Of a stretch of 64,000 nt of DNA, positions 4,609 through 37,194 are shown piece after piece; the stretch's first letter is position 1; each line of letters starts with the position of its first letter. Origin of the DNA: Terriglobia bacterium (lineage in GTDB: Bacteria; Acidobacteriota; UBA6911). Location of the stretch: positions 133,746 through 197,745 of the forward strand of contig CAVTZY010000023.1 in the NCBI GenBank assembly GCA_963739235.1, in the 5' to 3' direction. The notes under the pieces were generated by a model, which ran no database searches, was not told where the DNA came from, and saw only the letters and a program-made list of their open reading frames with translations. The position numbers and the translations under genes were made by a program.

Positions 4609-4971
4609 CCATCTATCATGGAACGCCCCGATCTGACACGGACGGCATCTATCCAGATTTGGCAACGGGCTCGGATGTGCGTCGTTGGCTGGATCAAGCA
4701 GAAGCCGATGTCTTGCTTGTTGGCCATACTCACATTCCATTCACTATTTCTGTCCCCGGCCGAGGCATGATTGCCAATCCAGGAGCACTCCTCGTGTATG
4801 TCGGAAGCGCACAATCCTTAAATCTATACCCCCTCCGCCGGAGGATTCGTCCACGAGCATGCCGCCGAATATGGCACGTTCGGTATCCCCCAACTGCCAT
4901 CCCTCCAATTCACCGTGCACCGTGCCTCCGACGGGAAAGAACTCCAAGTCAATCACAGGATGCTGTTTTAA
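4599..4971 (+). pseudogene. metallophosphoesterase (YfcE/MPP-like) remnant, N-terminally truncated and frameshifted
   Basis: ORF 4599..4997 contains LLVGHTHIPF...NPGAL. A different frame continues with GGFVHEHAAEYGTFGIPQLPSLQFTVHRASDGKELQV* (stop 4969..4971). The N-terminal metal-binding half is missing, and the permease stop abuts the fragment. Confidence 0.55.
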
Positions 4972-5033
4972 CTCACGTTAAATATAATTTCACTTGAAAA
5001 TTAACAGATTCATGTGTTAATTATCATTTCACC

Positions 5034-6074
5034 ATGAGCCTCATAACAAAAAAGGACGCCTCGATTCTCGGTGGGATAGGACCGTCGGTTTTGAGCAACT
5101 GGCGAAAGCGCGATCTGGAGTTCCGATCCTGTATTCGCCCAACAGCCTCCGGTGAGCGCATCGACAAAGAGAGTTTTTGTAGCTACCTGAGTGAGAGGAA
5201 GGGGTTCAAGCTTCTTACGCTTAAAGAGATGGCAAGTGCCATAAAAGTAATAGGAAGAGTTGGGAAACAGATCAGCAAGTGTCGGCCATGCATCGATGAT
5301 CCCTTGCCGCCATGGCCTTCGGATCTGTTTGATCAAATTGCGGCACCTTTCGAGTCTTGCCTTGAAGAGCGCTCACGCATAGGTCGAGAATTGGCCCAAG
5401 TTACTGGACGATTGCTGGCACCATTTGGAGAGCCGCTGATGCAAGTCGATTCGGCTCTCCTGCGCTGCCTGTCGAACGACAGTGAGAACCAGTTTTCGAA
5501 CTGGTTGGCTTACCTTCTTGGTCAGATGAAAAATGCGGACATCCTGAAATTGTTTGGCCTAACAGCATTCTTGACTGACACGGAAAAGAACGACCGGCCA
5601 AAAAAGGTGTGTCGTGAATCCTGGGTTGCATCGGGTCATGAGAATCAGACCGGTCGCCTCGACATCTTTGTCGAATGCACACCTATGGTGCATATCTGCA
5701 TCGAAACGAAACGTGGCGAGGCGCAATCCGCCGACACAAGCAAACAACGGGGATACTTCAGATCGCTACGCCGTCAGGGGATCACCCTTTTTTGCTTTCT
5801 CCTGGTGACTCATTCAAGCGAACCTGTAGTTGATAATTTCGATGTTATTCTTTGGCGAGATCTGACTCTGCGATTTCGACGCTGGGTCATTTCAGTATTG
5901 AGGAAGCGTTCGGGTCCGCACATATACTTAGCCTTTGTTCTTGGATTTGTAGCTGCCGTTGAACGAGGGATTCTGGGCTTATCGCTGGGCACGGACACTG
6001 GTGTTCCTTCCGTCGAAACAATCGCCTATCTTACCAAGTTCGTGAATGTAGAAAATGTAGAAGAGGATGCCTGA
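5034..6074 (+). CDS. hypothetical protein with an N-terminal HTH-like segment and a C-terminal PD-(D/E)XK nuclease-like core
   Basis: 346-aa ORF in a visibly AT-richer block. ITKKDASILGGIGPSVLSNWRKR resembles an XRE/MerR-type HTH. GRLDIFVE...VHICIETKRGE fits a D...E-x-K nuclease motif. Confidence 0.6.
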   Translation: MSLITKKDASILGGIGPSVLSNWRKRDLEFRSCIRPTASGERIDKESFCSYLSERKGFKLLTLKEMASAIKVIGRVGKQISKCRPCIDDPLPPWPSDLFDQIAAPFESCLEERSRIGRELAQVTGRLLAPFGEPLMQVDSALLRCLSNDSENQFSNWLAYLLGQMKNADILKLFGLTAFLTDTEKNDRPKKVCRESWVASGHENQTGRLDIFVECTPMVHICIETKRGEAQSADTSKQRGYFRSLRRQGITLFCFLLVTHSSEPVVDNFDVILWRDLTLRFRRWVISVLRKRSGPHIYLAFVLGFVAAVERGILGLSLGTDTGVPSVETIAYLTKFVNVENVEEDA

Positions 6075-6630
6075 TATGACTGAAGACGAATCCATCGATC
6101 CGAAGAGTACCTCTCCTCAGATCGACCTGCTACATGTAGCATTGCCTCAATATGGAGTTGCGGCCCCTGCCATGCACCTTGTCCAAAGCATCGTTTCGCG
6201 CAAACTCAAGGCAGTCCTTGATGCACAACGCGATCACATTAAGGTTGCCTGGAAACTCGAGGAAGCTCTGGGAGAGATAATGCGTAGTGTCTTTCCCGCT
6301 TTCCCGGAGGATGACTATGAGTATGACCCAGCTGACATCCACGTTAGGGTTTGGCTGGGTAATCCTCAATACGCAACTCTGTGGCTGTTTCTCCGTTTTC
6401 CACGCGCAAGCGAACGAGAGAAGCGCATATCCATAAATGTCGGTTTGGAAGTTTCACAGAAGTACCGTCGCGCTGAACTCGTGGCAAAAGTAGGTCGACA
6501 CCCAAACCTCTTCGAAGAAGAATGGGATGGCTACAGTGTGGGTCTTAGTAGAGAACTAAAATCTATTGACTCGATTGAAGAGGAAGCGAAGGCGTTACTC
6601 GGAGATTACATTGCCATTTTCGAAACATAA
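6067..6630 (+). CDS. hypothetical protein (187 aa), translationally coupled to 5034..6074
   Basis: The ATG overlaps the upstream stop by 8 nt (ATGCCTGA). Composition matches the neighbouring genes. No family recognised. Confidence 0.55.
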   Translation: MPDMTEDESIDPKSTSPQIDLLHVALPQYGVAAPAMHLVQSIVSRKLKAVLDAQRDHIKVAWKLEEALGEIMRSVFPAFPEDDYEYDPADIHVRVWLGNPQYATLWLFLRFPRASEREKRISINVGLEVSQKYRRAELVAKVGRHPNLFEEEWDGYSVGLSRELKSIDSIEEEAKALLGDYIAIFET

Positions 6631-6672
6631 CTGAAATTGTGCGCAACTGCAACACCGGGAGTGAACTGAATC

Positions 6673-6960
6673 ATGGCAGACATATCAGGCAATTGGATTT
6701 GTTCCGGACATATGTATAGGTTATGGCAACATGGGAAGTATTTTGAATGGTCGACGGATCGCCATGGCGCGGCTAAACGACAAGTGGGCTTAGGTTCGTT
6801 TGAGAGCGACAACGAAGTGAGAGCCTTTTGGAACTTCCACAACGGCAAGCAAGGAGAGATCAAAGATGCCAAAGGAAAGCTCGTCTTTGAGGGTGCCACG
6901 TGTGTCAAGATCGAGTGGTCAGACAAAGAAACATTCCTTCGTCCCAAGCAAATTGAGTAG
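6673..6960 (+). CDS. hypothetical small protein (95 aa)
   Basis: Third co-directional ORF of the AT-rich cassette. No family recognised. Confidence 0.45.
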   Translation: MADISGNWICSGHMYRLWQHGKYFEWSTDRHGAAKRQVGLGSFESDNEVRAFWNFHNGKQGEIKDAKGKLVFEGATCVKIEWSDKETFLRPKQIE

Positions 6961-6974
6961 AGATTTCTCCCTAG

Positions 6975-8445
6975 TCAGTGACTTCGATGCCCAAGGGCCC
7001 TGACTATATCAACCATTCCCGACATGTCCTGCGAACAATACCTCTCAAGTTGATCCATGATCGTGACGCGTTCCGAATCTGGAAGTTCCGCGAATGCCAT
7101 GTCGAGGAACCTCAGACTGGCAGTACTTCCGTTGGCTATTTCCAGATCATCATAGCTGCGCCCGGTCAAAGCAGGCAGGACCGCCTTTAAAGAGGCAGTC
7201 CCAAGCTGATCCGGGTGGTAGTAATGAAATGCTCGGAACGGCACCAGCAGATCAACGAAACGCGGAATCAGCTTTCGCACCCAACTGGAATACCCTGGGC
7301 AGTGGTCTGCACATTCTGCCAAAATCCGAATCTCGAATGGTGCATTATAGGCGACGATGCTGCCCCTCTCGCCCAGTTCGGCTGTTAGGCGCGATAGAAT
7401 CTCGGGCCTCGGGTCTTTCGCACCGTCTGCCAGAAATCCGGCGTGTTCGACTTCGGCGCCGGGTGAGCGGAGTGTGCACAGAGAGTACTGAAACGTCACC
7501 TGCTGATATGGACGCACGAGGTCATACACCGGAATCGCCGTCATGAACGTTTCGAAGTCCAGGAAGTGGAGAGGATACTCGAGACGACGCAGGAAACTGG
7601 CTAGCACCTCCTTGTCGACGTGAGGCTGTCCTGATTTTTCGCACTCCACTTGGATTCGCTGGTTGTCCGTTAACGGAAAGTCATCGGGGATGTCCTTGAG
7701 TCTTAGGATGCCTTGTCCCATTAGTTTCATTTTGCTGCCACCGCCACGGTACAGGGAAAAAACATTCCGTTCCGGAAGAAAAGACCAGCATGAGTCCTTC
7801 AACGGGCAGGGATAAGGAAGGTTGCAGTGCCCGCCGACTTCTGCCTTTGGGCAGCTTTTCAAGCGGATAATATCGCCCATTTTTCCCACTTGCTCCGGGA
7901 TTCCGGGCAAGATCGAAGCAATCTCTCGTGTGATGTCCTGCCTCTTGAAGAGTTCCTTGGCGCTGATGTCCCCATGCCGAACATAGGAATTGTCGATGTG
8001 CATCAGGAAACAGCGGCGGATACGGATTCCCGCCCCTTCGTAAACGTACTTTTGAAACGCCACATCCTGCAAATGTATGTCCTTCACCTCGGTGGTGCTC
8101 TTCACTTCGATCAGATCCCACGCGCCGGCGGGACCCGGGTCGAACACATCTGCGCGCAAAAGCGCGGCCGTGCGTGAAGCTGGTTTCGAATATCGGTCTC
8201 CTCTCTAGCAACGCGGCTTTTGACCTGGCGGTCACTTCTTCGAAGTCTTCTGTCCAATTAATCATGATTCCGCCGGGGAACAGGCTGGTCGCCAGTTCGC
8301 CCACGAGCTGACCCTGGTCAAAAATTGCCTGCGTCGAGGGATCTGGCTCAGGAATCTGTCGCTTGTCGTTGTAATGCGTCCAGAGCAGCTTCGGGCATTG
8401 AAGGCCTGCGATGAACTTACTCTTGGAAAGGAATGGTTCAGTCAT
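6975..8445 (-). pseudogene. DUF2779-type protein (Cas4/RecB-like PD-(D/E)XK nuclease with Cys cluster plus RNase-H-like exonuclease domain); one frame break near 8160
   Basis: The N-terminal part lies in ORF 7681..8502 (likely start ATG 8445: MTEPFLSKSKFIAGLQCPKLLW...SFTHGRAF). The rest lies in ORF 6975..8159 (RADVFDPGPAGAWDLIEVKSTTEVK; CNLPYPCPLKDSCW; LHFLDFETF...YNAPFE). The ATG overlaps the AAA+ gene stop by 8 nt. Confidence 0.7.
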
Positions 8446-10738
8446 AGCGCGAGGCCCTCCTCCGTATTTCGTACCCGGGTTCGATGGTTGTTTCTCCACC
8501 AAACAGAACCGGTGATTTTCGGGCTTCCCTGTATCTATCGAGTGTCTCGATGACGCGTTCGATCCCCAATTTTCCTTCCTCGCCCAGCATTATTGCCCGA
8601 ACTGACGCCTGGCGGCACACAAAATCTATTTCTCGAAGGTGCATGGGCGTACTCTCGACCAGATCGATGATGCTTTCCTGCAAGTCATGATTGGTTCCCA
8701 GGTGCTTCTCCCATTGCCGAATTTGGAGGTCCTCGGGCGGAAAGTTGATCTCCAGCAGTTGGTGGAATTCCGGAAGGAGCAGGAAGTTGCCCCGACACGC
8801 GGTCACGACAAAAACAAAGCCGCGGCAATCCCGCAGCTTGTTCAGGAAGCCGCGCAAAAGCAGCGGCGCATCCTCGCTGCCTTTTATTTTCGCCATCGTA
8901 GGGCGGTATGTAGAGAACTGCTCATCGTAATCGACGAAAAGTGAGGCGGAATGGTGCCCTGGATTTTCCGCAAACGCATATTCCAGCGGGCTGACTTCCA
9001 CCTGGCCCAGCGGATCGAGGAATCTACTTGCGCCGTCGCAGGAAAGGACTTCCGAGAGGGAGTACCTTCTTATTCTAAGATCGCAGGCGCAGGCCGTGGC
9101 CTCAACTGCCGCAACTCCGACGGCGAGGTCCGCAGTTGTTACCATGACGCTCAGACCGTAATTCTGGACGCGGAGCCGTTGCCATGCAGCGGCGAGACCA
9201 TTGAATTGCTGGCGTTCGGCGGCCCTCAGCGGTAATTCATCAATTTTCAAAGTAGGCGCGTATGACTCACCCAGCTTGTACTTGTCAAAGGCGCTAACCG
9301 ACTGATAGTCCGCAATCTGCACAAGGTCGCGCATGTTGACGACGATGCCACCCGAGCCGTTCCTTCCAATTGCTTCGCTAATGGCGGCGAACAGAGTATT
9401 TTTGATCAAGCCGCCGTTGAAATGGTAGTTCCTGGCCAAGCGTGAAAGGTCTACATCTGGAGCAAGCTTCACCTTGTCCGGGACAAGCTCCTGCCAAATC
9501 TTCCTGCGCAAGGTCTCATCAGGAAATACGAATGGCACCTTCATCGTGATCCTGCGCTCCAGGGAGGGATCGAGTTGAAACGGCTTGTTTGTCGCCAGGA
9601 TCGTCATGCAGCTGGCCTTCTCGATTTCGATAAGAAGGATCCTGCTCATCTCCTGCCCTTCTCCGAATATGTCGTCACACTCATCAAAAAAGACGATTCC
9701 ATCGTGAAGACGCGCCTCTCGAAAGATGTACTTGATGACATCATCAATCTCATGCCTCCGTTCGACGCTTTTCAGACTCACCGTAAAGATGATCTTGTTT
9801 AGGGCGTTCGCGAGCGCCTTTGCAAGCATCGTCTTGCCAGTGCCCGACGGACCGTAGAACAGCATCACCAGCCCGGTTCCATATCCATAGAATTCGTCAA
9901 TTCCAAGCGCAATCCGGCGGGTCCCACCGCTTGCAAAACTCGTGACAAGTCCAACGACATCCTTTTTAAGCTGATCCGGCATAATGACCTGTGCCAGCGA
10001 TACGGTGCTTTTTTCGCGCAGGATGTTTTTGAGCGCAGAATCGTAGAAACAATTGTCGCCGAGGATGTATCGAACAATGCGCTCGTGCAGGTAGGCGGAT
10101 TGGGTCAGGATATTGGTCGTCTCGTCGATTCTGCCAAGCAATATGATGATTTCCTCCCGGATCAGCCCGCCCTCGACACTGAAGTACCTGCGACTTGCGA
10201 TTTGGTCCCGATAATCGTTACAAAGGATGGCGAGAAGGCTCCCAACCGTGAGGGATTCACGGTTTTCATCCGCATCGTAGGCTCTAGCCAAGGCACTCTT
10301 GGAGAAGGCCTTCTTAAATGTCGTGCTGGTATTGACCACAAACAGAAGCAAAACGATAAGCCGTTCAAACTCCTTCAATGAGTAGGTCTCGCAAAGCTGA
10401 CTGAAAAGCAGGTGAATTCCCCGCGCCAGCGAATTCTTTTCCCGAGCACGATTTGTGGCAACGATGCCTTCCAGACGAGCCTCAAGTGATTTTTGTTGCG
10501 GTCCGTTACTGAGCATGGAGGATCTCTCGTACTGCCATGCAGGTTCATCGGGCCCTGGCTCTGCAGTTCCAATGCTCCTTGAATCGGCGAGTTCCAGGCG
10601 CAGCAGCACCTCCTGCTCCAAAGCCTGCAGGTGATCCAGGTTGTCCTGAAAAGAGTCCTGGATTTGGCCTCCTGCCGAAGGGTGTGGAGTCGAAAACGCT
10701 GCGGTCTCTCGTGAGATGAATCGGGCTCTGTCATCCAT
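8438..10738 (-). CDS. large AAA+ ATPase (classic clade), with an N-terminal helical extension, an active D1 and a degenerate D2
   Basis: Walker A FYGPSGTGKTMLAKALA, Walker B IVFFDECDD, sensor-1 and Arg residues ILATNKPFQLDPSLERRI. The C-terminal half is AAA-like but lacks a P-loop. GGGAGG lies 6 nt before the ATG. Confidence 0.85.
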   Translation of the reverse strand: MDDRARFISRETAAFSTPHPSAGGQIQDSFQDNLDHLQALEQEVLLRLELADSRSIGTAEPGPDEPAWQYERSSMLSNGPQQKSLEARLEGIVATNRAREKNSLARGIHLLFSQLCETYSLKEFERLIVLLLFVVNTSTTFKKAFSKSALARAYDADENRESLTVGSLLAILCNDYRDQIASRRYFSVEGGLIREEIIILLGRIDETTNILTQSAYLHERIVRYILGDNCFYDSALKNILREKSTVSLAQVIMPDQLKKDVVGLVTSFASGGTRRIALGIDEFYGYGTGLVMLFYGPSGTGKTMLAKALANALNKIIFTVSLKSVERRHEIDDVIKYIFREARLHDGIVFFDECDDIFGEGQEMSRILLIEIEKASCMTILATNKPFQLDPSLERRITMKVPFVFPDETLRRKIWQELVPDKVKLAPDVDLSRLARNYHFNGGLIKNTLFAAISEAIGRNGSGGIVVNMRDLVQIADYQSVSAFDKYKLGESYAPTLKIDELPLRAAERQQFNGLAAAWQRLRVQNYGLSVMVTTADLAVGVAAVEATACACDLRIRRYSLSEVLSCDGASRFLDPLGQVEVSPLEYAFAENPGHHSASLFVDYDEQFSTYRPTMAKIKGSEDAPLLLRGFLNKLRDCRGFVFVVTACRGNFLLLPEFHQLLEINFPPEDLQIRQWEKHLGTNHDLQESIIDLVESTPMHLREIDFVCRQASVRAIMLGEEGKLGIERVIETLDRYREARKSPVLFGGETTIEPGYEIRRRASRYD

Positions 10739-27000: not shown

Positions 27001-27333
27001 TCACCCGACCTTCTGGATCGAAATGGATGTGATGTGTGGCTTGGAATCAGAACTGAAGCGTTCGGCTCTTACCGGCTCGCGTAACAGGCTGACACGCTGG
27101 GCTGAGAGATCTCCGAGGAGGGAACCGAGCCCCGCGCCGGATATGGAGATGTCGTGAGTCGAAAAAGCGATTCTGATTTTGTCATCATCGCCCTGGGCGT
27201 AAAGGAACTGGTTCCAAGGCAAAACGACCGTCTCCTTCAATAATCTGATTTCCATCCCGGCAGGATGATCGTGTTCTCGTGCAATCCAGGTTTTGCTATC
27301 GCTCAATTTCGAGATCATAGGCTCTCCTTTCAT
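27001..27333 (-). CDS. hypothetical protein (110 aa)
   Basis: ORF downstream of, and overlapping, the relaxase remnant. No family recognised. Confidence 0.4.
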   Translation of the reverse strand: MKGEPMISKLSDSKTWIAREHDHPAGMEIRLLKETVVLPWNQFLYAQGDDDKIRIAFSTHDISISGAGLGSLLGDLSAQRVSLLREPVRAERFSSDSKPHITSISIQKVG

Positions 27334-27966
27334 ATATTGGCTTGACCTTCTCCACCGGCCCTACCGGTTCCTTGGCGGGCGCCGATGGTGTGATTACGGG
27401 AGGAGATGGTTTCTCCGGCATTGGATTGTTTGCAGTATGAGCTGGTTCCGGAATCGCTGTTGGTTCTGCAGCGGGACTGCTCCATTCCCGGACATACTGC
27501 GCTGCCCAGCGGGCGAGGTTGCAGGCGGCCTGAAAGCCGCGATCCAGGCCCTGATACAATCCCGGCCGCGCGCCTCGCGCCAGTTCCGAAGCCGACTGCC
27601 GGGCATTGGATCGGCCCACGGATTCCGAAAGCGTCTGTTTATCGCTCGTTATGACGAGTACCTTCTCCCTGCCGCGCGAGGCTGCGACATAAAACAGCTC
27701 CTTCTGCATGCCGTCAGCGGAAATGATGACCGAAGCAACCGATTTCCCCTGGCTGCGGTGAGCCGTCACCGCATATCCATGAGTGAACTGCCTGAAATGC
27801 GGCGGCAAGATACGCCCGTCGGTCAGATGCACCTGTTTTTTGGAATCGATACGATGGACGGTTACGATTTCGCCGTTGGTGACCCGGAAATCGGATTCCC
27901 GGCGATTGGCGGTAAGCAGGAGCTTGTCCCCGGGCGTAATCTCAATTGCATGCCTTTCGCATACAT
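27296..27966 (-). pseudogene. C-terminal fragment of a conjugative relaxase/TraA-MobA-type helicase (RecD-like C-terminal domain)
   Basis: THGYAVTAHRSQGKSVASVIIS...LFYVAASRGREKVLVITSD. The first ~20 codons of ORF 27296..28039 are read-through into the IS inverted repeat. Confidence 0.65.
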
Positions 27967-28239
27967 CAAAACCTACAGCGTCAAAAGTCGGTTGTGCCTC
28001 TGTAACTAGTTGATTCAAGGACATTTGGCGGCGCATCAAAACACCCGGTGAGTCGTAACTGTTCCATCGCAGCTTCGCGCTGGTGTTCTCCCCGTTCTCC
28101 TTCGTGATTGATTTGCAGCATCATCCATCTCGCGACAACCCGCATGAATACTGGGCCTTCGAGTGGTCTGGCCGTTTCGACATGTCCCGGCTTGGCCGCG
28201 TGACCACAGGCTGGGCAGTCATTAGTGTCTCCAGAATGT

Positions 28240-28283
28240 GGAACAATTACGAGTCATGTTATATAATCGATCGTAATTGTTCC
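28240..28283 (+). promoter_or_regulatory. 13-bp perfect inverted repeat (GGAACAATTACGA / TCGTAATTGTTCC) bracketing a TATAAT box (28262..28267), just upstream of the SD and orfA ATG
   Basis: Read directly from the sequence. AGGAGG lies at 28284..28289 and the ATG at 28294. Confidence 0.4.
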
Positions 28284-28293
28284 AGGAGGCGCT

Positions 28294-28974
28294 ATGACTT
28301 CAAAGATCCAGCCCCTTTCCCGGCTCAATCAGCTCTTCCGGCGCAAGCGGGCCGCGCTGCTCGACGACCTGCGCCAGGCGCTGGGCACCAGGTCGCGCAC
28401 GAGCATTTTCCGGATATTGAAGGCCGTCGGATACTTCACCAGCTACAGCCACGCCGGACGCTACTATACCTTGCGCCGCATCCCGAAGTTCGACCGGTGG
28501 GGCCTGTGGGCCTGGCGCGGTATCGGGTTCTCTTCCCGCGGCACGCTGCGTGCCACGGCGGTGTTTCTGGTCGAGGAGTCGGCGGTCGGGCAAACACACG
28601 AAGAACTGCAGCAACGGCTCGGACTGCGCATCTACGACACGGTGCGGAGCCTGGTCGCGGATGGGGCAATCAGCCGCGAACGCTTCGAGGATGTTTACCT
28701 CTACTTGAGCGCGGATCCGAAGAAGGCCGCCGTTCAGATGGCGGCGCGGCGGGAACTTCATGCCGCCGTTGTCGCCCGGCCAGCAGACCCGTTGCTGGTG
28801 ATCGACGTGCTGGTACGTGTCATTCATCACCCGCGGGACGATGCCGCGACGATCGCTGCGCAATTGCAGTCGGCCGGGCGTTCTGTGACGCCCGCTCAAG
28901 TCGAGGGAATCCTTCATGCTTACGGCGTAAAAAAAACGGCGGTCCGGTCACCCTCGCTCAGGTCGCAAGCCTGA
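28294..28974 (+). CDS. transposase OrfA (DNA-binding part), homologous to the ISAzo13 OrfA N-terminus
   Basis: LRQALGTRSRTSIFRILKAVGYFTSYSHAGRYYTLRRIPKFDRWGLW aligns with LKQALGSMATMTVFRKLKALGYRTSYSHRGRYYTLVNIPRFDERGLW at 12719. An A8 run lies at 28929..28936. Confidence 0.7.
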   Translation: MTSKIQPLSRLNQLFRRKRAALLDDLRQALGTRSRTSIFRILKAVGYFTSYSHAGRYYTLRRIPKFDRWGLWAWRGIGFSSRGTLRATAVFLVEESAVGQTHEELQQRLGLRIYDTVRSLVADGAISRERFEDVYLYLSADPKKAAVQMAARRELHAAVVARPADPLLVIDVLVRVIHHPRDDAATIAAQLQSAGRSVTPAQVEGILHAYGVKKTAVRSPSLRSQA

Positions 28975-30860
28975 GGCAGGCAATCCGGCAGTTGCAGGAC
29001 GACTGCCGGCAACGCTCGCAGAGCATCGCCGGTGTGCTGGTCGAGGCGGATGAGATCAGGCAACAATGTTCATCCTGTGGCGGTCCGACGCGGGTGAGGA
29101 AGACGTGGGTACGCACGGGCGTGACATTGCACCACGGCACTTTCCGCCTGCGGCAGAAGGTATGCATCTGTGTCTCCGGCTGCCCTGGGAGCAAACGGAC
29201 CGGCGCGCTCGCCAGCCTCGTGCCGCCGCGCGGCGTCGTCGGCTACAACGTCATGGTCTACGTCGGGCTGGAGCGCTTTCTGCACCACCGGCAACGGGAG
29301 GAAATACGGGCGTCTCTTGCGGCCGATCATGGGATCTGGCTTTCCAGCGGCGAGATCAGCATGCTGGCCCGCCGGTTCCTGGCGTATCTGGAGCGGCTGC
29401 ATCATGCCGCGGCCCCTCGGCTTCGGGCCGCGTTGGCGGCAGACGGCGGCTGGCCGCTGCACATCGACGCGACCGGGGAAGACGGCCGGGGGACGTTGTT
29501 GGTGGCCTTTGCCGGATGGCGCCAGTGGGTGCTGGGCGCCTGGAGGATTCCCACGGAGCGCGCAGAGGCCATCCTCCCCCGTCTGCACGAGGTGACGTTT
29601 CGTTTCGGGCCGCCCTGCGCGATCGTGCGCGACCTGGGCCGGGCCATGGCAGAGGCCTCCGATCAGCTCGTCCGTGAACTCAAGCTCTCCATTCCCGTGC
29701 TGGCCTGTCATCTCCACTTCCTGGCTGACGTCGGCAAGGGCTTGCTCGAAGCATCCCACGACCGGCTGCGTGCCTTGTTCCGGCGGGCGAAACTCCGCAG
29801 TCAGTTGCGCGCTCTGGCGCGGGACCTGGGTCGCAGTCTTGGCCGCGACATCGACGGTGCGCGTGCCGGCTTGCGCCTCTGGCAGGCCGAGGCCGCCGAC
29901 CGGGAGCGTCAGTTCCCTGAGGGCTCGGCTGGAATCGCCACGGCCCGTGCGCTCGCCCAATGGATCCTCGACTATCCGGCGGACACCCACGGGGACGGAT
30001 TTCCCTTCGATCTTCCATGGTTGGCTCTCTACGATCGTTGCCTGCAGGCTGCCGGCGCGGTCGAGCACTTCCTGTCCGACCCGCCCCGGAATTGCGCAGT
30101 CCGCAAGTCCCTCCGGCGCCTTCGGCGTATCTTGGGGCCCATTCAAGACAACGATCCAGGCTTCGGTGCCGTTGCCAGCACGTTGGCGCGCCGCGCCGCA
30201 CTTTTCGCCGAGTTGCGAAAAGCGCTTCGGCTCCAGCCAGAGTCGAATCGAAGAAATCACACATCGTCGCAGCCGCAGAGCGCAACGCGAGAGTTGAAAG
30301 ACATCCGTCTGGCGGTGCGCCGCCTGACCCGTTCTCTGCGCACGCGCCGTCCGAAGCGTGGGCCGGCTCAAGACCACCGTCAGGCGATCGATATCGTCCT
30401 GTCCCATCTCAAGACGCATGGCCGTTATCTTTGGGGTCATGCCATCCACCTGCCCGGGAAACTCAACGGCCTTGTTCACCTGGTGGAGAGGACCAACAAC
30501 CTGATCGAGTCGCTTTTTCACACACTGAAGCATGGTGAACGTCGCCGTAGCGGCCGAAAGGTCCTCACGCACGATTTCGAGAACCTCCCGCCGGCCGCGG
30601 CTCTCGTGACAAACCTGACCCACCCCGATTACGTTTCGCTAGTCTGCGGGTCACTCGACCGACTGCCCGAGTCTTTCGCAAAACTCGATGACAAAGCTGG
30701 CCCCAAGCCTAAATCATCGGTCACCTTGCTGGCGGCGAGTTCAGATCCGGAGAGTGCTTCGCTGCCGAGTGCTGATCGGAAGCTTGTACGCACGGAGGAA
30801 ATGACCCAGCGCATCATCGAAGCCGCTCAGAAGGGCTCACGGGCGAGGATGGTCGCGTGA
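28935..30860 (+). CDS. DDE transposase catalytic part (OrfB, -1 frame relative to OrfA)
   Basis: Downstream part of ORF 28083..30860: CSSCGGPTRV..., WPLHIDATGEDGRGTLLVAF, CAIVRDLGRAM, NNLIESLFHTLKHGERR (N-x-IE-x-K signature). The part of that ORF upstream of ~28935 overlaps OrfA out of frame and is not credible. Confidence 0.7.
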   Translation, partial: NGGPVTLAQVASLRQAIRQLQDDCRQRSQSIAGVLVEADEIRQQCSSCGGPTRVRKTWVRTGVTLHHGTFRLRQKVCICVSGCPGSKRTGALASLVPPRGVVGYNVMVYVGLERFLHHRQREEIRASLAADHGIWLSSGEISMLARRFLAYLERLHHAAAPRLRAALAADGGWPLHIDATGEDGRGTLLVAFAGWRQWVLGAWRIPTERAEAILPRLHEVTFRFGPPCAIVRDLGRAMAEASDQLVRELKLSIPVLACHLHFLADVGKGLLEASHDRLRALFRRAKLRSQLRALARDLGRSLGRDIDGARAGLRLWQAEAADRERQFPEGSAGIATARALAQWILDYPADTHGDGFPFDLPWLALYDRCLQAAGAVEHFLSDPPRNCAVRKSLRRLRRILGPIQDNDPGFGAVASTLARRAALFAELRKALRLQPESNRRNHTSSQPQSATRELKDIRLAVRRLTRSLRTRRPKRGPAQDHRQAIDIVLSHLKTHGRYLWGHAIHLPGKLNGLVHLVERTNNLIESLFHTLKHGERRRSGRKVLTHDFENLPPAAALVTNLTHPDYVSLVCGSLDRLPESFAKLDDKAGPKPKSSVTLLAASSDPESASLPSADRKLVRTEEMTQRIIEAAQKGSRARMVA

Positions 30861-30900
30861 GATGTGCAAATCCAACCGACTTTTGACGCCGTAGGATTTG

Positions 30901-31133
30901 TTGAATCCCAAAACGGCAAGCTGCAAATCTATTTTCTTCCGCCATACTCTCCGGAATTAAACCCGGATGAATCTGTTTGGAATGATCTAAAGAACAACGG
31001 CATAGGCCGAATGTCTATTAGCGGTCCTGACGATATGAAGCAAAAAGTCGTTGATTATATGAGAGGCATGCAGCGAACGCCCGAATTGATCTCTTCTTTC
31101 TTTCGGGCTCCCGATACAAAATATGCTGCATAA
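30901..31133 (+). pseudogene. IS630-family transposase C-terminal fragment
   Basis: LQIYFLPPYSPELNPDESVWNDLKNNG (DDE_3 signature). The N-terminal codons of ORF 30864..31133 derive from the neighbouring IS repeat. Confidence 0.7.
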
Positions 31134-31403
31134 TGTCCGCATACATATGCACTGATTAGTAATAACCAGACCTGTTTTTTTGATGTAAGCGGGAAATTGG
31201 AGGGTGAAGAATTGTGGAAATAGTGTCTGGTCATAACCTTGCCGTCGTCAGTCCCTCATCCGCCGCCTCCATTGTGAAACTACTTCATTGCACGGACCGT
31301 TGCTGCTCCATGGAGCCTCGGGGCAGGCTTGACCCTCAACAGACCTGCCCTGATCTGACACGTTTTTCCAGACTGGGGACGGTTTCACTCGAACCGTGCT
31401 GCA

Positions 31404-34217
31404 TCATCCAATCGGTCGTGCTGTCAAGCTATGACTACGGATCAGTTTGCCGCGTAACAATGCCGTTCTCCTCGACCTCCGGGTGTTCTTCTGGACGAAG
31501 ACATCGACATCCTTCTCTCCAGAACGCAGGAAGTCCAAGAAACTGACTCCTTTGTATTCGCACGTTTCGCACACGCTCAAGAGTATCAGGTACTTCTCAA
31601 TGGCCCGCCCAGTGCATGACCCGCCTATCACATTGCGTAGCCTCGCAAACGCTTTGATTGCGTGCTCTGCGTTGTTGTTGTTCCACGCGACCCCGTCATG
31701 GCCCAAGAACGTGAACAGCTTGTCCGCGTTCTTCTGAAACCGTTTTTGGTACGAGATGGCTGCTTCGGTCTTGTACTCAAACCTCGACACGCTGACAAGA
31801 AATCGTTGCGCCTCCCTCTTGTGCTTTCTCAAGTAACGTTCTCTCAACCCGAAACGGTCGATGGTTTCCACTATTGGCCTAAGAACTCCGCCGAAATCCT
31901 GCGCTAAGGAGCGCAGTTCTCCGTTGAATGGGTGATTCAGGAGATCATCGTTCAAGTCGCGCATCAAGTGCACCAGGCATTTCTGTTGCGGACAGTCCAT
32001 CGAGTCGTAAGCGGCGTAGAAGTCGGAAACCAATACTCCCTTGAAGCCCTCGATACGTTGGTTCAGTACTGTTGACTCTCGCGTCTCAGAGTAGACATAT
32101 AGCACTTCTCGCAGACTCGTAAACACCCATACATAGGCTCGTTCGCCCTTTATGCTCGCTGCTGTCTCATCGGCATGGAGCACGTTACCACAGACTATCT
32201 TGCTATTGATGGCCTCATAAGCATCCGTATAGAAATCGGCAGCTCTCACCAGCAGTTTGTGGATAACAGGTTGACCCACATTGTAGTGAAACACAGTGTT
32301 TATTTGTCGTGCGAGGACAGCTTGGGGAATGCCCAGTTCGACGACATGGTAAACCACGTACGCGATCAGTTCTGTGCCGTAAGGGTGCCTTGTTGTCCCA
32401 TGCCGATCTGAGGGGAAGGTCTTCCCGCAGTTGAGACACTTGTAGTGAATCACTACAAACTGCTGTACCCACCTTTTGACGCCCGCGCGCCCGAATCTCA
32501 CGTCATACAAGGGCTTGGTGTGTCTGCCATATCTGACAATCTTTGGAGAACCGCAATGCAGGCATTGAACTGGACGAGAGGGCTCAATGACCTTATTGAT
32601 GGGATAGGTGAATGTCGATCTCTTGCCTGTCGGTTTCCTGCCACGCCTATTGGGGATGCTTGCCCTCAGGCGTAACCTATTGCGTTGGTAGTCCCAATAA
32701 GCACACCGGTTAATGTAATCAAATGCAGGAAGCGAGAAGTCGGTTTTCCCCCACTTATAAAACTCTTGTTTTCTGAGGGAGTCAGTGTGAATGATGCTGA
32801 TATCAGCGCATTCAGATTCCGAGGTGCCCCTTTCACATATGGTAGCTGATAGCGTTTTGGCTACCATTTCTAGCGCCTCACAATCCTCAGCGTTGTATCT
32901 CAGCAGTTTCTGCTTCAGTTCCGGTTCCCTGCAACGTTCCCATTCATGTCTCCATACCAATGCTTTCAACCCAGAAGCTTCGCTGTCTGTCCATTGAAAT
33001 CCCAGGAAGTGAGCGATCTTCTTGAGCCCATTCGAATAGGTTGGGAAGTAGACCTGCGCATAAATGACGGACAACAGGTTCATGGCGTCGTCGACCACTT
33101 GGCCCAGCGAGGCGTACGTTTGGGACACCTCAGGATACCGTTTTTTCATTCGCTTCAGGAAAACTGACTCGTAGCTTCCGTAGTGGATGATCCGGGGATT
33201 GTCGATTAGCGCCAAAGCCTCGTTAAACAACGTCCATATTGCCTCCTCTTGAGCTGCGTCCTCTGCCCAGAACGAGTGTTGAATGGGCGAACCCTCGTGT
33301 ATAGTGCGTAAGCCAATCAGATAGTAGAAGTCCCGGTCTGGAACTCCTTCCACATCGAGATAGACGGGATTGCCGGTCATGTTCAACTCCGGTCTCCCGC
33401 AAATGTGAATCTTGTTCTCCCGAATGGCGAGTGCTTTCAGGGAATGATGGTACCTCTCAGGCTTGGATGCTGAACGCTTCGGTCTACTTCGAGGGCGAAA
33501 GGTATAGGATAGCTGAGTGACGGTAAAGATCCCCTTGTTGTGCAATGTCTTCCGTTCCTTCTCGGTCATGCCTGAGAGAAGGCTGAGATCGTCCTCCTCG
33601 ACAGCCGCCCGGCGGCATTGAGGCTGGTACTCGCACTCGGCACAATGCTTGTTGAGGAAAACTGGCGGGGGCGTCTGGCTTTCCTGCTCTGTACGGATCT
33701 GTCGGACTTCGGACCGAGCCGTCTTCATCAAGTCAGTCAGTTGGACCTTGGAAGACCTATATTCCGCGCCGTGGATTATTCTGCCGAAGGTCGGCGTCGT
33801 GCCAAAAGCCAGGGACAGGGCAAGCGCATCAAAGGCCAGCATCAGCTTGTCATGCTTTGTGACTTTCTCAGTTGGTACGAAGCGTACCGGGACAAAAGCC
33901 AGAGGCTGCTTCCGGCCCGTCGACGGTACTATCTCCACAGCGTGAAGCCGTGATTGCAGCTCTTCCGCCTGAACCAAGCAATCAACAGCAATCCGACACG
34001 GCTTGTGCTCACGCACTTCTTCCAGGGGTAAACCCTCCAGGCATTCCTCTCCCAGGAAGTGGGACAGCAACCGTCTATGGCTTTCATGCTTGTACTCTTC
34101 GAGAATACGGCACTGCAATTCGGCGAATTCACATTGGACGCCGGGAACCCCTGAGGACCTGCGGTACCACTTGGTCTTGCAGAGGAGAAACTCATGAAAG
34201 TCGTCGTCTGTAATCAT
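31404..34217 (-). CDS. fusion protein: TM0106/RecB-like nuclease with RNase-H-like domain (N-terminal ~530 aa) joined to an IS66-family DDE transposase (C-terminal ~410 aa)
   Basis: ORF 31404..34256. Preferred start is ATG 34217 (MITDDDFHEFLLCKTKWY). N-terminal part: CAECEYQPQCRR, DDLSLLSGMTEKERKTLHNKGIFTVTQLS, VYLDVEGVPDRDFYYLIGL. C-terminal part: zf-IS66-like CLHCGSPK...CLNCGKTF, HADETAASI, LVSDFYAAYDS, CLVHLMRDL, NNNAEHAIKAFARLRNVIGGS. Confidence 0.8.
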   Translation of the reverse strand: MITDDDFHEFLLCKTKWYRRSSGVPGVQCEFAELQCRILEEYKHESHRRLLSHFLGEECLEGLPLEEVREHKPCRIAVDCLVQAEELQSRLHAVEIVPSTGRKQPLAFVPVRFVPTEKVTKHDKLMLAFDALALSLAFGTTPTFGRIIHGAEYRSSKVQLTDLMKTARSEVRQIRTEQESQTPPPVFLNKHCAECEYQPQCRRAAVEEDDLSLLSGMTEKERKTLHNKGIFTVTQLSYTFRPRSRPKRSASKPERYHHSLKALAIRENKIHICGRPELNMTGNPVYLDVEGVPDRDFYYLIGLRTIHEGSPIQHSFWAEDAAQEEAIWTLFNEALALIDNPRIIHYGSYESVFLKRMKKRYPEVSQTYASLGQVVDDAMNLLSVIYAQVYFPTYSNGLKKIAHFLGFQWTDSEASGLKALVWRHEWERCREPELKQKLLRYNAEDCEALEMVAKTLSATICERGTSESECADISIIHTDSLRKQEFYKWGKTDFSLPAFDYINRCAYWDYQRNRLRLRASIPNRRGRKPTGKRSTFTYPINKVIEPSRPVQCLHCGSPKIVRYGRHTKPLYDVRFGRAGVKRWVQQFVVIHYKCLNCGKTFPSDRHGTTRHPYGTELIAYVVYHVVELGIPQAVLARQINTVFHYNVGQPVIHKLLVRAADFYTDAYEAINSKIVCGNVLHADETAASIKGERAYVWVFTSLREVLYVYSETRESTVLNQRIEGFKGVLVSDFYAAYDSMDCPQQKCLVHLMRDLNDDLLNHPFNGELRSLAQDFGGVLRPIVETIDRFGLRERYLRKHKREAQRFLVSVSRFEYKTEAAISYQKRFQKNADKLFTFLGHDGVAWNNNNAEHAIKAFARLRNVIGGSCTGRAIEKYLILLSVCETCEYKGVSFLDFLRSGEKDVDVFVQKNTRRSRRTALLRGKLIRSHSLTARPIG

Positions 34218-34286
34218 CGTAAACGGGATTGTAGGGCGAATACGACCGGGAGGCAATAAGGGCCAGAGAAAGCGCGGCCTGGCTCC

Positions 34287-34577
34287 TTAAGCGACCGACA
34301 CCGATTCATAGACGCCCCAGCGATCAGTAACAAACTCAAACGCGCACTCTCGCGCCTCGGGACCCCACGTTTGCTCTCCATCGAAGACCCAGGCGACAAA
34401 GTTGTTCTGTGCGCGGTAAAGCCCGTTCACCTTGCAGAGCGCCGAGAATTGCTTCGCCTCCGTCTCCAGCTCAATCCATCCGAGACGCTGGCAGGTCGCG
34501 CGGGCCTCTGAACCAACCGCCCTCCTATGACAATACCAGGTCCCATTGCTCCTGTTCATCTGCACCGGGCGCAACAA
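34287..34577 (-). CDS. hypothetical small protein upstream of the fusion gene
   Basis: ORF only; no family recognised. Confidence 0.3.
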   Translation of the reverse strand: MLRPVQMNRSNGTWYCHRRAVGSEARATCQRLGWIELETEAKQFSALCKVNGLYRAQNNFVAWVFDGEQTWGPEARECAFEFVTDRWGVYESVSVA

Positions 34578-34720: not shown

Positions 34721-35113
34721 GTGCTCCGGGTCAAGGCCAACAGCAGAGGGGGACACCGGATCGGGAATCCCGCGTTTTTCCCAGTCCCGCGCCAGGAGGA
34801 CAGCTTGAAAGCAATTGTGCCTGCCTCAGCCGTGTTCGCCTTCGAGGTCGACCGGTGTCTCGTCACGTTAGAGACGACGATCGAGCGTCCCGCGCCAGAC
34901 ACAAAGGCGACGGATGAGTGGCTTTTCTTGGCAGCACATGTCGGTCTGCCGACCCCCTTTCTTGATTGGACAGAAAGCGCTCTTGTTGCTCTTCGGTTTG
35001 CCCCGTTGGAGAAGAGCCTAATCGTCTGGATGCTAAGTCCTCTTCTGCTCAACAGTTCTCTGTCACCAACCAACCAGAGAATACCATGCTGGGCAGCGAT
35101 GAATTGCCGCTAA
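34721..35113 (+). pseudogene. FRG-domain protein remnant (frame-disrupted)
   Basis: FLAAHVGLPTPFLDWTESALVALRFA matches the FRG-domain core. Protein-like continuation appears in other frames up to about 35270. Confidence 0.5.
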
Positions 35114-35597: not shown

Positions 35598-36775
35598 ACT
35601 TATAAGCATTTCTATCCGGGAGAGCAGGGAAAAGAAGGCGAAAAGGGGGATCGCAGGGGGCATTGGGGGGACGACTCGGGGCAGGCAGGGCATTGCCGGG
35701 CTGGGAACGGGGTTTTCTGGAGCAGAAAGCCCGGCAATGGCCTGCCTGCCCCGAGTGCCGGGCCTGGGGAGCGCTTGCGCTCATGAGCCGGGACAAACCT
35801 CGACCGGGCGGCCTTCTGGCCGGCATGCGGCGTGGATGGCGCGGAAGCTTACGGAAGGGTGTCGGGCCGGGCGCGAGGAGGAGGACGCGGCTGGAAAGGG
35901 TCCCGAGTCTTGCAGCGCTTGCTCTCCCCGTGGCGCAGGATGCGGTCGACGACGCGGGGGTCGGTAATAAAGGCGACCATGCGCATACGGGCGCCGCAGG
36001 CGCAAGTCAGAGGATCCGCTTCGAAGATTTTCCTGATCAAGCGGGCCCAAGTGCTGCGGGCCTCGCTGGAGAAGTCGGAATTGTCCCGGGCCTCGGCCGC
36101 GGGAGGGCCGGCGCCGGGGCTGTCGGCTTGCTCGCCCGCGCAGACGATTCTGCCCCGGTTGGAATACGCGCCGTAGAAGCGCTGGCAGTGGCTTCCCGGA
36201 TAGGGGATATGGGCGGTGATGCGGTGAATCCACTCGTGCGGATCGAGCACGAGCCGGGTGGCGCCGGAGCGCGGGTCCGGGGGCGTCTCCAGGGCCAGGT
36301 TGCCGTCCTCAAGTTTCCGCGGCGCATCCATGGCCAGAGCGGGGCGCGTGATGTAGCGACCCTGGGATTCGAGCGCGGCGAGGGCGCCGGCTTCCACCGG
36401 CGGTCCCGCGAAGACTGAGAATCCGGGATGAACCCAGGACAAGAGATTGTGCATGAAGCTTTCGGAGAGGCGTTCGGCCCGGTGCAGGCGCTCCAGGAAC
36501 AGGCGCCGGAAGACTTCCCTGACGGCGTCGGGATCGGGCGCGGGAAGCGTCAGGAACTCTCCTTGCCGAGTGAGAACGCTGTCAGAAACCAGGGCGTGGG
36601 CGTGCGGATTGAAGTTGCACCCGTAGCCGCCGAAGGTCTGCAGCGAGATGACGCAGCCGGGGCGGACATCAGCGCGGTCAAAGAATGCCTGGAAGGTTTT
36701 CAGAATCGCCGCGTAGGCGGTTTGTGATAGAAGGCCGAGCAGCTTGCGGTCGCGTTCGATGAGGCCGCGCAGGAC
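35598..36775 (-). mobile_element. IS91-family element, 5'-truncated copy (copy 1)
   Basis: About 1.18 kb, near-identical to 41229..42408 (offset 5631-5633 bp). Contains a 28-bp-stem hairpin at 35675..35755. Confidence 0.8.
35849..36775 (-). pseudogene. IS91-family HUH (Y2) transposase lacking its N-terminal zinc-binding part
   Basis: ORF 35849..37060. Homology to copy 2 starts at VLRGLIERDRKLLG. Contains NFNPHAHALVSD (HUH) and CQRFYGAYSNRGR. Codons above 36775 are antisense read-through of the FN3 gene. Confidence 0.75.
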
Positions 36776-36780
36776 GGAAG

Positions 36781-37194
36781 ACCCTAGCCTGGGATCCAAA
36801 TGTTGAATCGGACCTGGCCGGCTATAGGGTTTACTACGGCAAGGCTCCTGGCGTGTACAGTGCCCCGATCTCACTGGGCAGGCAGACAACCTACACCGTG
36901 ACCGGCCTGACGCCGGGGACTTACTACTTTGCGGTGACAGCCTACAACACGGCCAGCCTGGAAAGCGGCTTTTCAAACGAAGTTTCCACGACTGTCGCGG
37001 CATCATCGAGGTGCGATCTCGACCTCGATGGGGCCGTGAACATAATGGACCTGCAAGCACTCATCAACGCAATCCTGGAAATAAAACCGCTGCCCGAAGG
37101 GGTCAGCGGCGACATGAACAGCGATGGCGTCGTCAATGTTCTGGACCTGCAGGTCCTGGTTTCCGTGATCCTTGGGATCGCGGTGTGTAAATAA
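36781..37194 (+). pseudogene. 5'-truncated gene for a fibronectin-III plus dockerin-repeat protein
   Basis: In-frame WDPNVESDLAGYRVYYGKAPGVYS...TYTVTGLTPGTYYFAVTAYN (FN3), then DLDLDGAVNIMDLQALINAIL...GDMNSDGVVNVLDLQVLVSVILG (two dockerin-type EF-hand-like repeats). Cut by IS91 copy 1. Confidence 0.65.

Follow-up and report, generated by a model that had tools for sequence, protein, structure and literature searches.

In a 64,000-nucleotide stretch of the genome of a Terriglobia bacterium (contig CAVTZY010000023.1; this whole stretch is hereafter called the window), a single open reading frame (ORF) on the minus strand at 31404..34217 encodes a 937-aa protein that joins a TM0106 module to an IS66-type transposase. 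We put the chances at about even that what is found here is an intact copy of a mobile element of non-canonical type, made up of one gene and belonging to an uncharacterised, deep branch of the IS66 superfamily. Profile, alignment and structure comparisons show three folded modules in one polypeptide, namely a Cas4-like iron-sulfur (Fe-S) domain, a DEDDy 3'-5' exonuclease, and a zinc finger with a DDE core. Sequence comparisons show that the fusion is real, recurrent and probably ancient, and alignments of copies from different genomes show that it spreads horizontally as a unit little larger than the ORF itself (about 2.8-2.9 kb). The family is large, has been automatically annotated thousands of times in databases, and is undescribed in the searchable literature.

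Gene and domain architecture

The reading frame runs without interruption over 31404..34256 on the minus strand and would encode 950 aa if translation started at TTG. The ATG at 34217 gives the 937-aa protein, whose stop codon occupies 31404-31406. Since the N-terminus MITDDDF fits the start consensus of the family alignment (M-[LI]-IT-[DE]-E-x-F), 937 aa is the right length. The original prediction, made from the letters alone, had described one ORF of this length carrying both parts, which proves correct; its strand, then unstated, is minus. All motifs that were quoted at the time are found in the translation (CAECEYQPQC, DDLSLLSGMT...GIFTVTQLS, YLDVEGVP...YYLIGL, HADET, SDFYAAYD, CLVHLMRDL, and NNNAEHAIKAF).

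Profile searches divide the protein into its parts. TIGR03491 (TM0106 family RecB-like putative nuclease) matches residues 85-454 (model positions 88-460 of 462) with 195.1 bits against a cutoff of 97.45, PF13482 (RNase_H_2) matches residues 285-456 (E=9e-22), and PF03050 (DDE_Tnp_IS66) matches residues 613-867 (E=3e-29). The IS66 transposase model NF033517 covers residues 541-898 (model positions 20-381 of 387) with 174.4 bits, which falls slightly short of its 180-bit equivalog cutoff. A Cas4 profile matches residues 6-203 (E=3e-8). An AlphaFold2 model built from 63 family sequences, with a mean predicted local distance difference test (pLDDT) score of 74, contains three confident modules (residues 1-190, about 280-460, and 540-910) with disordered linkers between them. 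In Foldseek searches, the C-terminal module matched the ISCth4 DDE transposase (6xgx, E=3e-8), and the N-terminal module matched Cas4 (8d3l, TM-score 0.62 to the target), the nuclease domain of Dna2, and SSO0001. The whole protein, used as the query in a sequence search of the PDB, gave no match, and a profile of the N-terminal domain matched only the C-terminal half of Cas4 there.

The modules follow one another along the minus strand. The Cas4-like PD-(D/E)XK fold (residues 1-205, 33603..34217) carries the Fe-S cysteines C13, C192, C195, and C201 and a degenerate site (H92, R112, E117, and K118). It leads into a helix-hairpin-like segment (DDLSLL...GIFTVTQLSYTFRPR) with a basic linker (residues 206-280, 33378..33602), which is highly conserved in the alignments, has low pLDDT in the model, and was aligned to canonical TM0106 proteins by hhalign. 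The RNase_H_2 / DEDDy 3'-5' exonuclease domain (residues 285-456, 32850..33365) includes D288, E290, Y346, E350, Y441, N442, and D445. The transposase part opens with a beta-rich zinc-finger region (residues 541-612, 32382..32597; C552, C555, C594, and C597), which has weak matches to transposase zinc-binding models and modelled strands at 560-594. It continues into the IS66-type DDE core (residues 613-898, 31524..32381), where the key residues are D683 (HADET), D732 (SDFYAAYD), E851 (NNNAEH), H750, R753, and K855.

Conservation of the active sites

Residue conservation was examined in 110 non-redundant full-length members that are 42-52% identical to the window protein. The DDE triad (D683, D732, and E851) is present in all 110, together with H750, R753, and K855. 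The same holds for the zinc-finger cysteines C552, C555, and C594 (C597 in 109) and for the Fe-S cysteines C13, C192, C195, and C201 (C...CxxCx5C), which align to the Cas4 structure 8d3l. The exonuclease residues D288, E290, Y441, N442, and D445 are likewise invariant and E350 is found in 109 members; with Y346 included, the set is 98-100% conserved and also occurs in canonical TM0106 proteins.

At the would-be acidic positions of a RecB-type site, E95 is kept in 76% of members, D130 in 89%, and N stands in for E117 in 49%. Alignments to canonical TM0106 proteins, made independently with MAFFT and with hhalign (96.8% probability), gave the same register. His92 is aligned with the motif-II Asp, the motif-III acid position holds a variable residue or E117, and the QxxxY pair is gone, with L/M in place of the Gln and D130 in place of the Tyr. 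K118 is the only PD-(D/E)XK residue retained, and Asp at position 92 is still present in some family members. The RecB/PD-(D/E)XK motifs (GxxD, (D/E)xK, and QxxxY) have been lost in the window protein and in the family. With His92 at the Asp, a variable residue at the motif-III acid, and neither Gln nor Tyr kept, the Cas4-like domain has most likely lost its nuclease activity and serves as an Fe-S-bearing module that binds DNA. The 3'-5' exonuclease is the predicted conserved catalytic add-on.

The N-terminal part had been proposed to bear TM0106/RecB-like hallmarks. The TM0106 relationship stands, with a DEDDy exonuclease inside it, and a credible active RecB-type nuclease does not, with H92 at the motif-II Asp. 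The prediction had also named intact catalytic residues as a point to check; the DDE triad and the exonuclease residues are intact and essentially invariant, and the RecB-type nuclease site is degenerate. Both halves are under purifying selection, as the ratio of nonsynonymous to synonymous substitution rates (dN/dS) of close pairs is 0.13-0.30 in each, compared to 0.77 in the disrupted copy L074.

Recurrence and distribution of the family

At least 120 full-length relatives were recovered in a word-indexed search. They measure about 910-950 aa, have identities of 48-90%, and all carry PF13482 plus PF03050; the closest of those listed, P0001, is 90% identical. An exhaustive phmmer search of 1.84 billion cluster representatives gave 8,146 matches with E<=1e-3. 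With E<=1e-30, 1,196 clusters (at 50% identity) remain, and each of the top 150 covers both halves, down to about 33% identity. In a one-genome-per-species collection of 185,579 species, 482 relatives were found, spread over about 10 phyla. Recurrence of the fusion had been singled out as a check from the beginning, and these clusters and species representatives settle it. Host phyla in the GTDB include Acidobacteriota, Planctomycetota, Verrucomicrobiota, Nitrospirota, Pseudomonadota, Bacteroidota, KSB1, Hydrogenedentota, and Cyanobacteriota. A metagenome scan yielded at least 600 matches, and among the matches listed none was above 52% identity to the window protein. Many of the member-bearing metagenome contigs are just 2.9-3.5 kb long. 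Full-length members also reside on two finished cyanobacterial plasmids, and 2.9 million viral contigs yielded no relatives. Compared with the C-terminal half, canonical IS66 transposases reach only 22-25% identity. Five representatives (P0124 with 1435 aa, P0138 with 1280 aa, P0194, P0205, and P0248) exceed the norm by 100-500 aa, with the surplus outside the matched region, and may carry extra fused domains.

The original prediction had raised the possibility of a new transposon type; to the databases, the architecture is not new. These proteins are named 'IS66 family transposase' or 'TM0106 family RecB-like putative nuclease' by PGAP (the Prokaryotic Genome Annotation Pipeline), and 'predicted RecB family nuclease' in other sources; the use of two unrelated pipeline names has kept the family hidden. 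A 2012 survey of Ca. Solibacter usitatus tabulated four 'transposase IS66' genes with pfam03050 and COG2251 without comment (PMC3469429). Apart from this one table entry, the fusion is undescribed in the searchable literature (IS66 with RecB, COG2251, Cas4, or DUF4338; TM0106).

Boundaries of the unit

Copies in different contexts are 85-96% identical at the DNA level. For 77 pairs of near-identical copies whose flanks differ, shared sequence extends by a median of 70 bp upstream of the gene and -13 bp downstream. DNA identity between taxa is 84-95%, for example between copies of Planctomycetota (L029) and Nitrospirae (L045). The clearest case, the pair L008/L105, is 96-100% identical from -39, where the unit begins with ATTAGGACTGTCAC, to +34, where it ends with CAACAAGGTATAC. 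Beyond these points, one side is the orthologous host flank, where identity is about 72%, and on the opposite side it is no better than random. These steps define a discrete unit of about 2.84 kb that is younger than its surroundings. The L057 and L044 subfamilies also have crisp ends in at least three independent contexts.

In the group of copies termed subfamily A, the right boundary is constant (ending in CCGGTAAACAAATAC, 8-16 bp past the stop codon) and the left boundary forms a ladder within an upstream DruA-like (PF14236) gene. This upstream gene is intact in L112, where it shares an ATGA stop/start overlap, and frameshifted in L012. Other copies of subfamily A keep the last 79, about 74, 52, 41, 29, 20, or roughly 0 DruA-like codons, all in different contexts. 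In L112 (380-5760) and L012 (1563-6743), a same-strand block consists of an IS66 TnpC gene (566 aa, with a coiled-coil N-terminus), the DUF4338 gene (PF14236, 2e-44), and the fusion gene. Together, TnpC and the DruA-like gene may make up a two-gene element of IS66 type that has yet to be described. As a general partner of the fusion gene, the DruA-like DUF4338 gene was rejected, as it is present or vestigial in one subfamily only.

Upstream cargo is found within the unit in other subfamilies. It includes MazE/PrlF plus PIN (L069/L075), an IrrE-type helix-turn-helix peptidase plus DUF4411 (L013/L101), and BrnA (L018). The block shared by L013 and L101, with the peptidase, DUF4411, and the fusion gene, starts inside a tRNA-Val(CAC) gene (1933-2007 in L013), of which L101 retains about 16 nt (about 990-1010). 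L086, the contig of P0001, and an Acaryochloris plasmid each have a toxin-antitoxin pair abutting the fusion gene. Over these cases, the right edge lies within tens of bp of the stop codon, and the left edge is variable and able to include upstream DNA.

Three of 77 assemblies hold two diverged copies, and four copies are reported for Ca. Solibacter usitatus. In L052, two divergent members lie in tandem on the same strand (3935-7027 and 7476-9693), about 450 bp apart and with no DNA-level similarity. Decayed copies are occasionally seen, namely L049, L074, and, on a plasmid of Bradyrhizobium, a fragment of 304 aa. In L081-L085 (about 5847-6560 in L081), the fusion gene is followed downstream by umuD with an 85-aa N-terminal piece of umuC (IMS domain) that ends 60 bp from the fusion gene stop, and two to three tyrosine recombinase genes lie upstream. 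The arrangement suggests that umuC was interrupted by the fusion gene or by a larger island.

Neighbouring genes

Clustering of the flanking ORFs of 80 loci revealed no conserved neighbour; such clusters as did recur consisted of antisense ORFs within the fusion gene itself. A Pfam census of the 111 nearest long ORFs found 201 different families and no partner; genes of mobile elements and of defence (AbiEii, integrases, ArdC, Schlafen/AlbA, and Tn3 and IS66 transposases) were mixed with housekeeping genes (Lon, ThiF, and RecG). In the window, no tnpA or tnpB family is found among the flanking ORFs within about 3 kb, as had been observed at the outset, and no neighbour is conserved at the 80 related loci. 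Repeat arrays adjoining the gene are absent from 174 loci and from the window. Defence models of PADLOC-DB matched only by the Cas4 fold (E=3e-8 and weaker), with no conserved system partner.

Evidence against a mobile element

Several observations weigh against mobility. Terminal inverted repeats in about 80 loci are at chance level (15-17 of 20) and inconsistent in position, there are no GTAAGCG-type IS66 ends in these loci, and no terminal k-mer, motif, or hairpin is shared family-wide. At refined junctions, no target-site duplication was detected (shared substring of 1.95 nt against 2.32 nt in random controls); a weak duplication signal could have been eroded, since the compared copies are just 85-96% identical. 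The defined ends of the L008/L105, L057, and L044 groups are not inverted repeats, and their flanks are without duplication. No pair with at least 97% identity was found in two different contexts, as each such pair proved to be one locus sampled more than once. Occurrences of an identical protein on several contigs had been considered as new insertion sites and were rejected for this reason.

The mode of inheritance points the same way. Most genomes show a single copy, about 99% of the sampled copies are intact, and dN/dS is 0.13-0.30 also in copies that look vertically retained. Some copies are separated from intact host genes by 5-13 bp. Many of the homology boundaries lie within the ORF itself, so recombination among members of the family also contributes to the pattern. 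No member has ever been observed to transpose.

Proposed mechanism

As a single-gene mobile element, the fusion could work as follows. The zinc finger and the Fe-S domain would bind DNA or DNA ends, and the DDE site would carry out strand cleavage and transfer. The fused exonuclease may trim 3' ends or flanks as an end-processing step. In such a scheme, the TM0106 module would stand in for the TnpA/TnpB helpers and for the coiled-coil N-terminus of canonical TnpC. Only the 3'-proximal end would be defined by sequence, which would explain both the absent inverted repeats and the variable upstream capture. The passengers seen upstream are toxin-antitoxin pairs, fragments of the DruA gene, and one tRNA fragment. 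In its full form, this amounts to a new class of DDE element, in which the 3'-proximal end is set by sequence and the other by the fused Fe-S domain and exonuclease, with no repeats or duplications and with sporadic upstream capture; we advance it tentatively and regard it as rather unlikely. A new transposon type with an end-processing exonuclease had already been put forward in the original prediction and is still a live hypothesis, once shorn of the RecB-type nuclease activity, which is not credible.

Comparison with known systems

The C-terminal half resembles IS66 TnpC, with a complete zinc finger and DDE_Tnp_IS66 core, the D..D..E triad, and the C-x-x-H-x-x-R and NNxAE signatures. A single-ORF organisation is also known from the ISBst12 subgroup of IS66, where the absence of tnpA and tnpB is typical. 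The fusion family differs in that the coiled-coil N-terminus of TnpC (compare the stand-alone neighbour at L112) is replaced by a TM0106 module of roughly 530 aa. It also lacks tnpA/tnpB as well as detected GTAAGCG-type repeats or 8-bp duplications, and its left boundary is variable.

The N-terminal half follows the order of TM0106/COG2251 (TIGR03491) proteins, with a Cas4-like domain (1+3 cysteines), a helix-hairpin, and an RNase_H_2 DEDDy domain with identical exonuclease motifs. Canonical members keep GxxD / (D/E)xK / QxxxY and stand alone or are joined to superfamily 1 (SF1) helicases, whereas the fusion family has lost these motifs and is joined to a transposase instead. Canonical TM0106 proteins of plasmids carry GYADFL / YEVxDTK / QLxLY motifs; they are mostly SF1-helicase fusions, with one 550-aa stand-alone protein. 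On plasmids of Roseomonas, Sphingomonas, and Pseudomonas luteola (L174, L175, and L177), TM0106 plus SF1 helicase proteins (AAA_11/AAA_12/AAA_30) of about 1,110-1,140 aa have intact RecB motifs and a Dna2-like layout, and one of them adjoins a WYL-domain gene.

In Tn7-type elements, TnsA, a nuclease of the restriction-enzyme fold, works with the DDE transposase TnsB on the transposon ends. The likeness is conceptual, as a PD-(D/E)XK-fold module is paired with a DDE transposase in both. In the fusion protein, however, the PD-(D/E)XK site is degenerate, the extra activity would be a 3'-5' exonuclease rather than a 5'-end endonuclease, and a single polypeptide has no TnsC/D/E-like partners. A second parallel is adaptation by CRISPR systems, where Cas4-Cas1 fusions and Cas2-DEDDh likewise bring an integrase-type enzyme into physical union with a DEDD exonuclease and an Fe-S domain of the Cas4 fold. 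Among the structures matched by fold are the Cas4-Cas1-Cas2 complexes 8d3l and 7mi5. The integrase of the fusion family is a DDE transposase, not Cas1, and no arrays adjoin it and no cas genes lie nearby.

One fixed and one variable boundary, with adjacent DNA captured in differing lengths, is reminiscent of ISEcp1 and of IS91/ISCR. ISEcp1 is a DDE element of the IS1380 family that leaves target duplications, and IS91/ISCR use HUH enzymes. The fusion family shows no target duplications, and the resemblance would be one of pattern only.

Alternative explanations

The main alternative is a domesticated transposase that no longer mobilises its own gene. It would serve a cellular or island function, such as end processing or integration, defence, or maintenance, and would spread passively on islands and plasmids and by recombination. 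We hold this to be possible, at a level clearly below an even chance. The lack of terminal inverted repeats, target-site duplications, and conserved ends fits such a gene, as do the mostly single and about 99% intact copies with purifying selection in both halves, the tight packing between host genes, and the retention of a copy beside the same host gene in two species (L008/L105). Its frequent neighbours (toxin-antitoxin modules, AbiEii, integrases, ArdC, Schlafen/AlbA, and DruA-like genes), the fusion of the TM0106 module elsewhere to SF1 helicases in cellular-type proteins, and the recombination indicated by homology boundaries inside the ORF agree with it as well. Unit-limited identity steps next to unrelated or more diverged flanks are, however, hard to obtain by passive island transfer. 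Further points against domestication are the four copies in one complete genome (PMC3469429), the very patchy distribution (482 matches among 185,579 species), the decayed copies, the 0 relatives in 2.9 million viral contigs, and the lack of a conserved partner, with defence-family matches limited to the Cas4 fold. A domesticated transposase in a defence-like role was the second proposal of the original prediction. Domestication is still live; for defence, no family other than Cas4, no partner, and no array was found. A DDE integrase domesticated with prespacer-type trimming nucleases for non-CRISPR DNA capture would be equally novel if true.

An ordinary ISBst12-like, tnpC-only IS66 element would require that short repeats and 8-bp duplications were missed, with copies 5-15% diverged and flanks decayed. 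The complete core, the PGAP name IS66 family transposase, and the crisp ends of some subfamilies are in its favour, and so are the many metagenome contigs of 2.9-3.5 kb, as repeats would give. We nevertheless find it improbable, since ends known to a few bp (the L008/L105, L057, and L044 groups) are neither inverted repeats nor flanked by duplications. In one subfamily, moreover, the left ends vary and the right end is constant, NF033517 scores 174 against a cutoff of 180, and canonical transposases are only 22-25% identical to the C-terminal half.

An assembly chimera or an annotation artefact joining two genes, which the original prediction had feared along with uniqueness to one genome, is excluded for practical purposes by the recurrence of the same architecture in hundreds of independent assemblies, including finished plasmids and contigs of long-read metagenome-assembled genomes of up to 5.7 Mb, by a linker conserved in length and partly in sequence, and by matching dN/dS in both halves.

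Genomic surroundings in the window

The window holds one copy of the fusion gene, which sits in a low-GC patch amid mobile-element remnants. Its GC content is 52.1% compared to 57.2% for the window, 5 points lower, and the low-GC block spans about 30800-34250, in agreement with the AT-richer block noted earlier. A promoter-like TTGCCT-17-TACAAT site on the minus strand (34228..34256) ends 11 bp before the ATG; it is suggestive only, as such sites are as frequent in the region as chance predicts. Past the stop codon, a hairpin read from the sequence (ACGGTT-cgagtga-AACCGT, 31379..31397, minus strand) begins after 7 bp. A similar hairpin lies at the crisp right boundary in the L057 subfamily, and the one described here is a possible 3'-end feature of the window copy only, of unproven significance.

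Downstream of the gene, a very GC-rich long ORF (28083-30860, plus strand; up to 68% GC locally) has transposase-like motifs, a weak match to the NCBIfam IS66 model (E=1e-5, 24.7 bits), and no Pfam match. It may be another highly divergent IS66-superfamily transposase adjoining the fusion gene. Between these two larger transposase genes, an 89-aa C-terminal fragment of an IS630-type DDE_3 transposase (30864-31133, plus strand, E=2e-10) occupies the lowest-GC patch (43-49%). On the other side, a 96-aa orphan ORF (34287-34577, minus strand) shares the fusion gene's strand and ends 70 bp upstream of it; it has no family match and no homologue in about 170 related loci, and an ORF with an FRG domain follows (34721-35113, plus strand, E=7e-10). 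A partial IS91/Y2-type transposase (35849-37060, minus strand; 72 bits against a cutoff of 125) and a C-terminal fragment of a TraA/RecD2-type relaxase-helicase (27296-28039, minus strand, by profile match) make the 27-37 kb region look like a decayed conjugative or integrative element.

Farther away, the presence of a DUF2779 gene at 6975, with which the original prediction had compared the nuclease fold, is borne out (6975-8159, minus strand, E=2e-34). DUF2779 is a predicted 3'-5' exonuclease family that co-occurs with the Cas4-like DUF83 (PMC3985635). Beside it lies a gene for a 766-aa protein with a winged helix and an AAA ATPase domain (8438-10738, minus strand), and the two genes may form a separate two-gene system.

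Implications

The family is known to databases and not to the literature, and the main question it raises is whether it represents a repeat-less DDE mobile element or a domesticated transposase. IS66 is among the least understood major insertion-sequence families, both in its mechanism and in what TnpA and TnpB do. A natural swap of the accessory parts for an exonuclease and an Fe-S, Cas4-like domain points to an end-processing step that IS66-type transposition needs. As a single-protein system, the fusion makes reconstitution in vitro feasible. If the absence of repeats and duplications is real, it would mean either a wider repertoire of DDE transposition or a widespread domesticated transposase.

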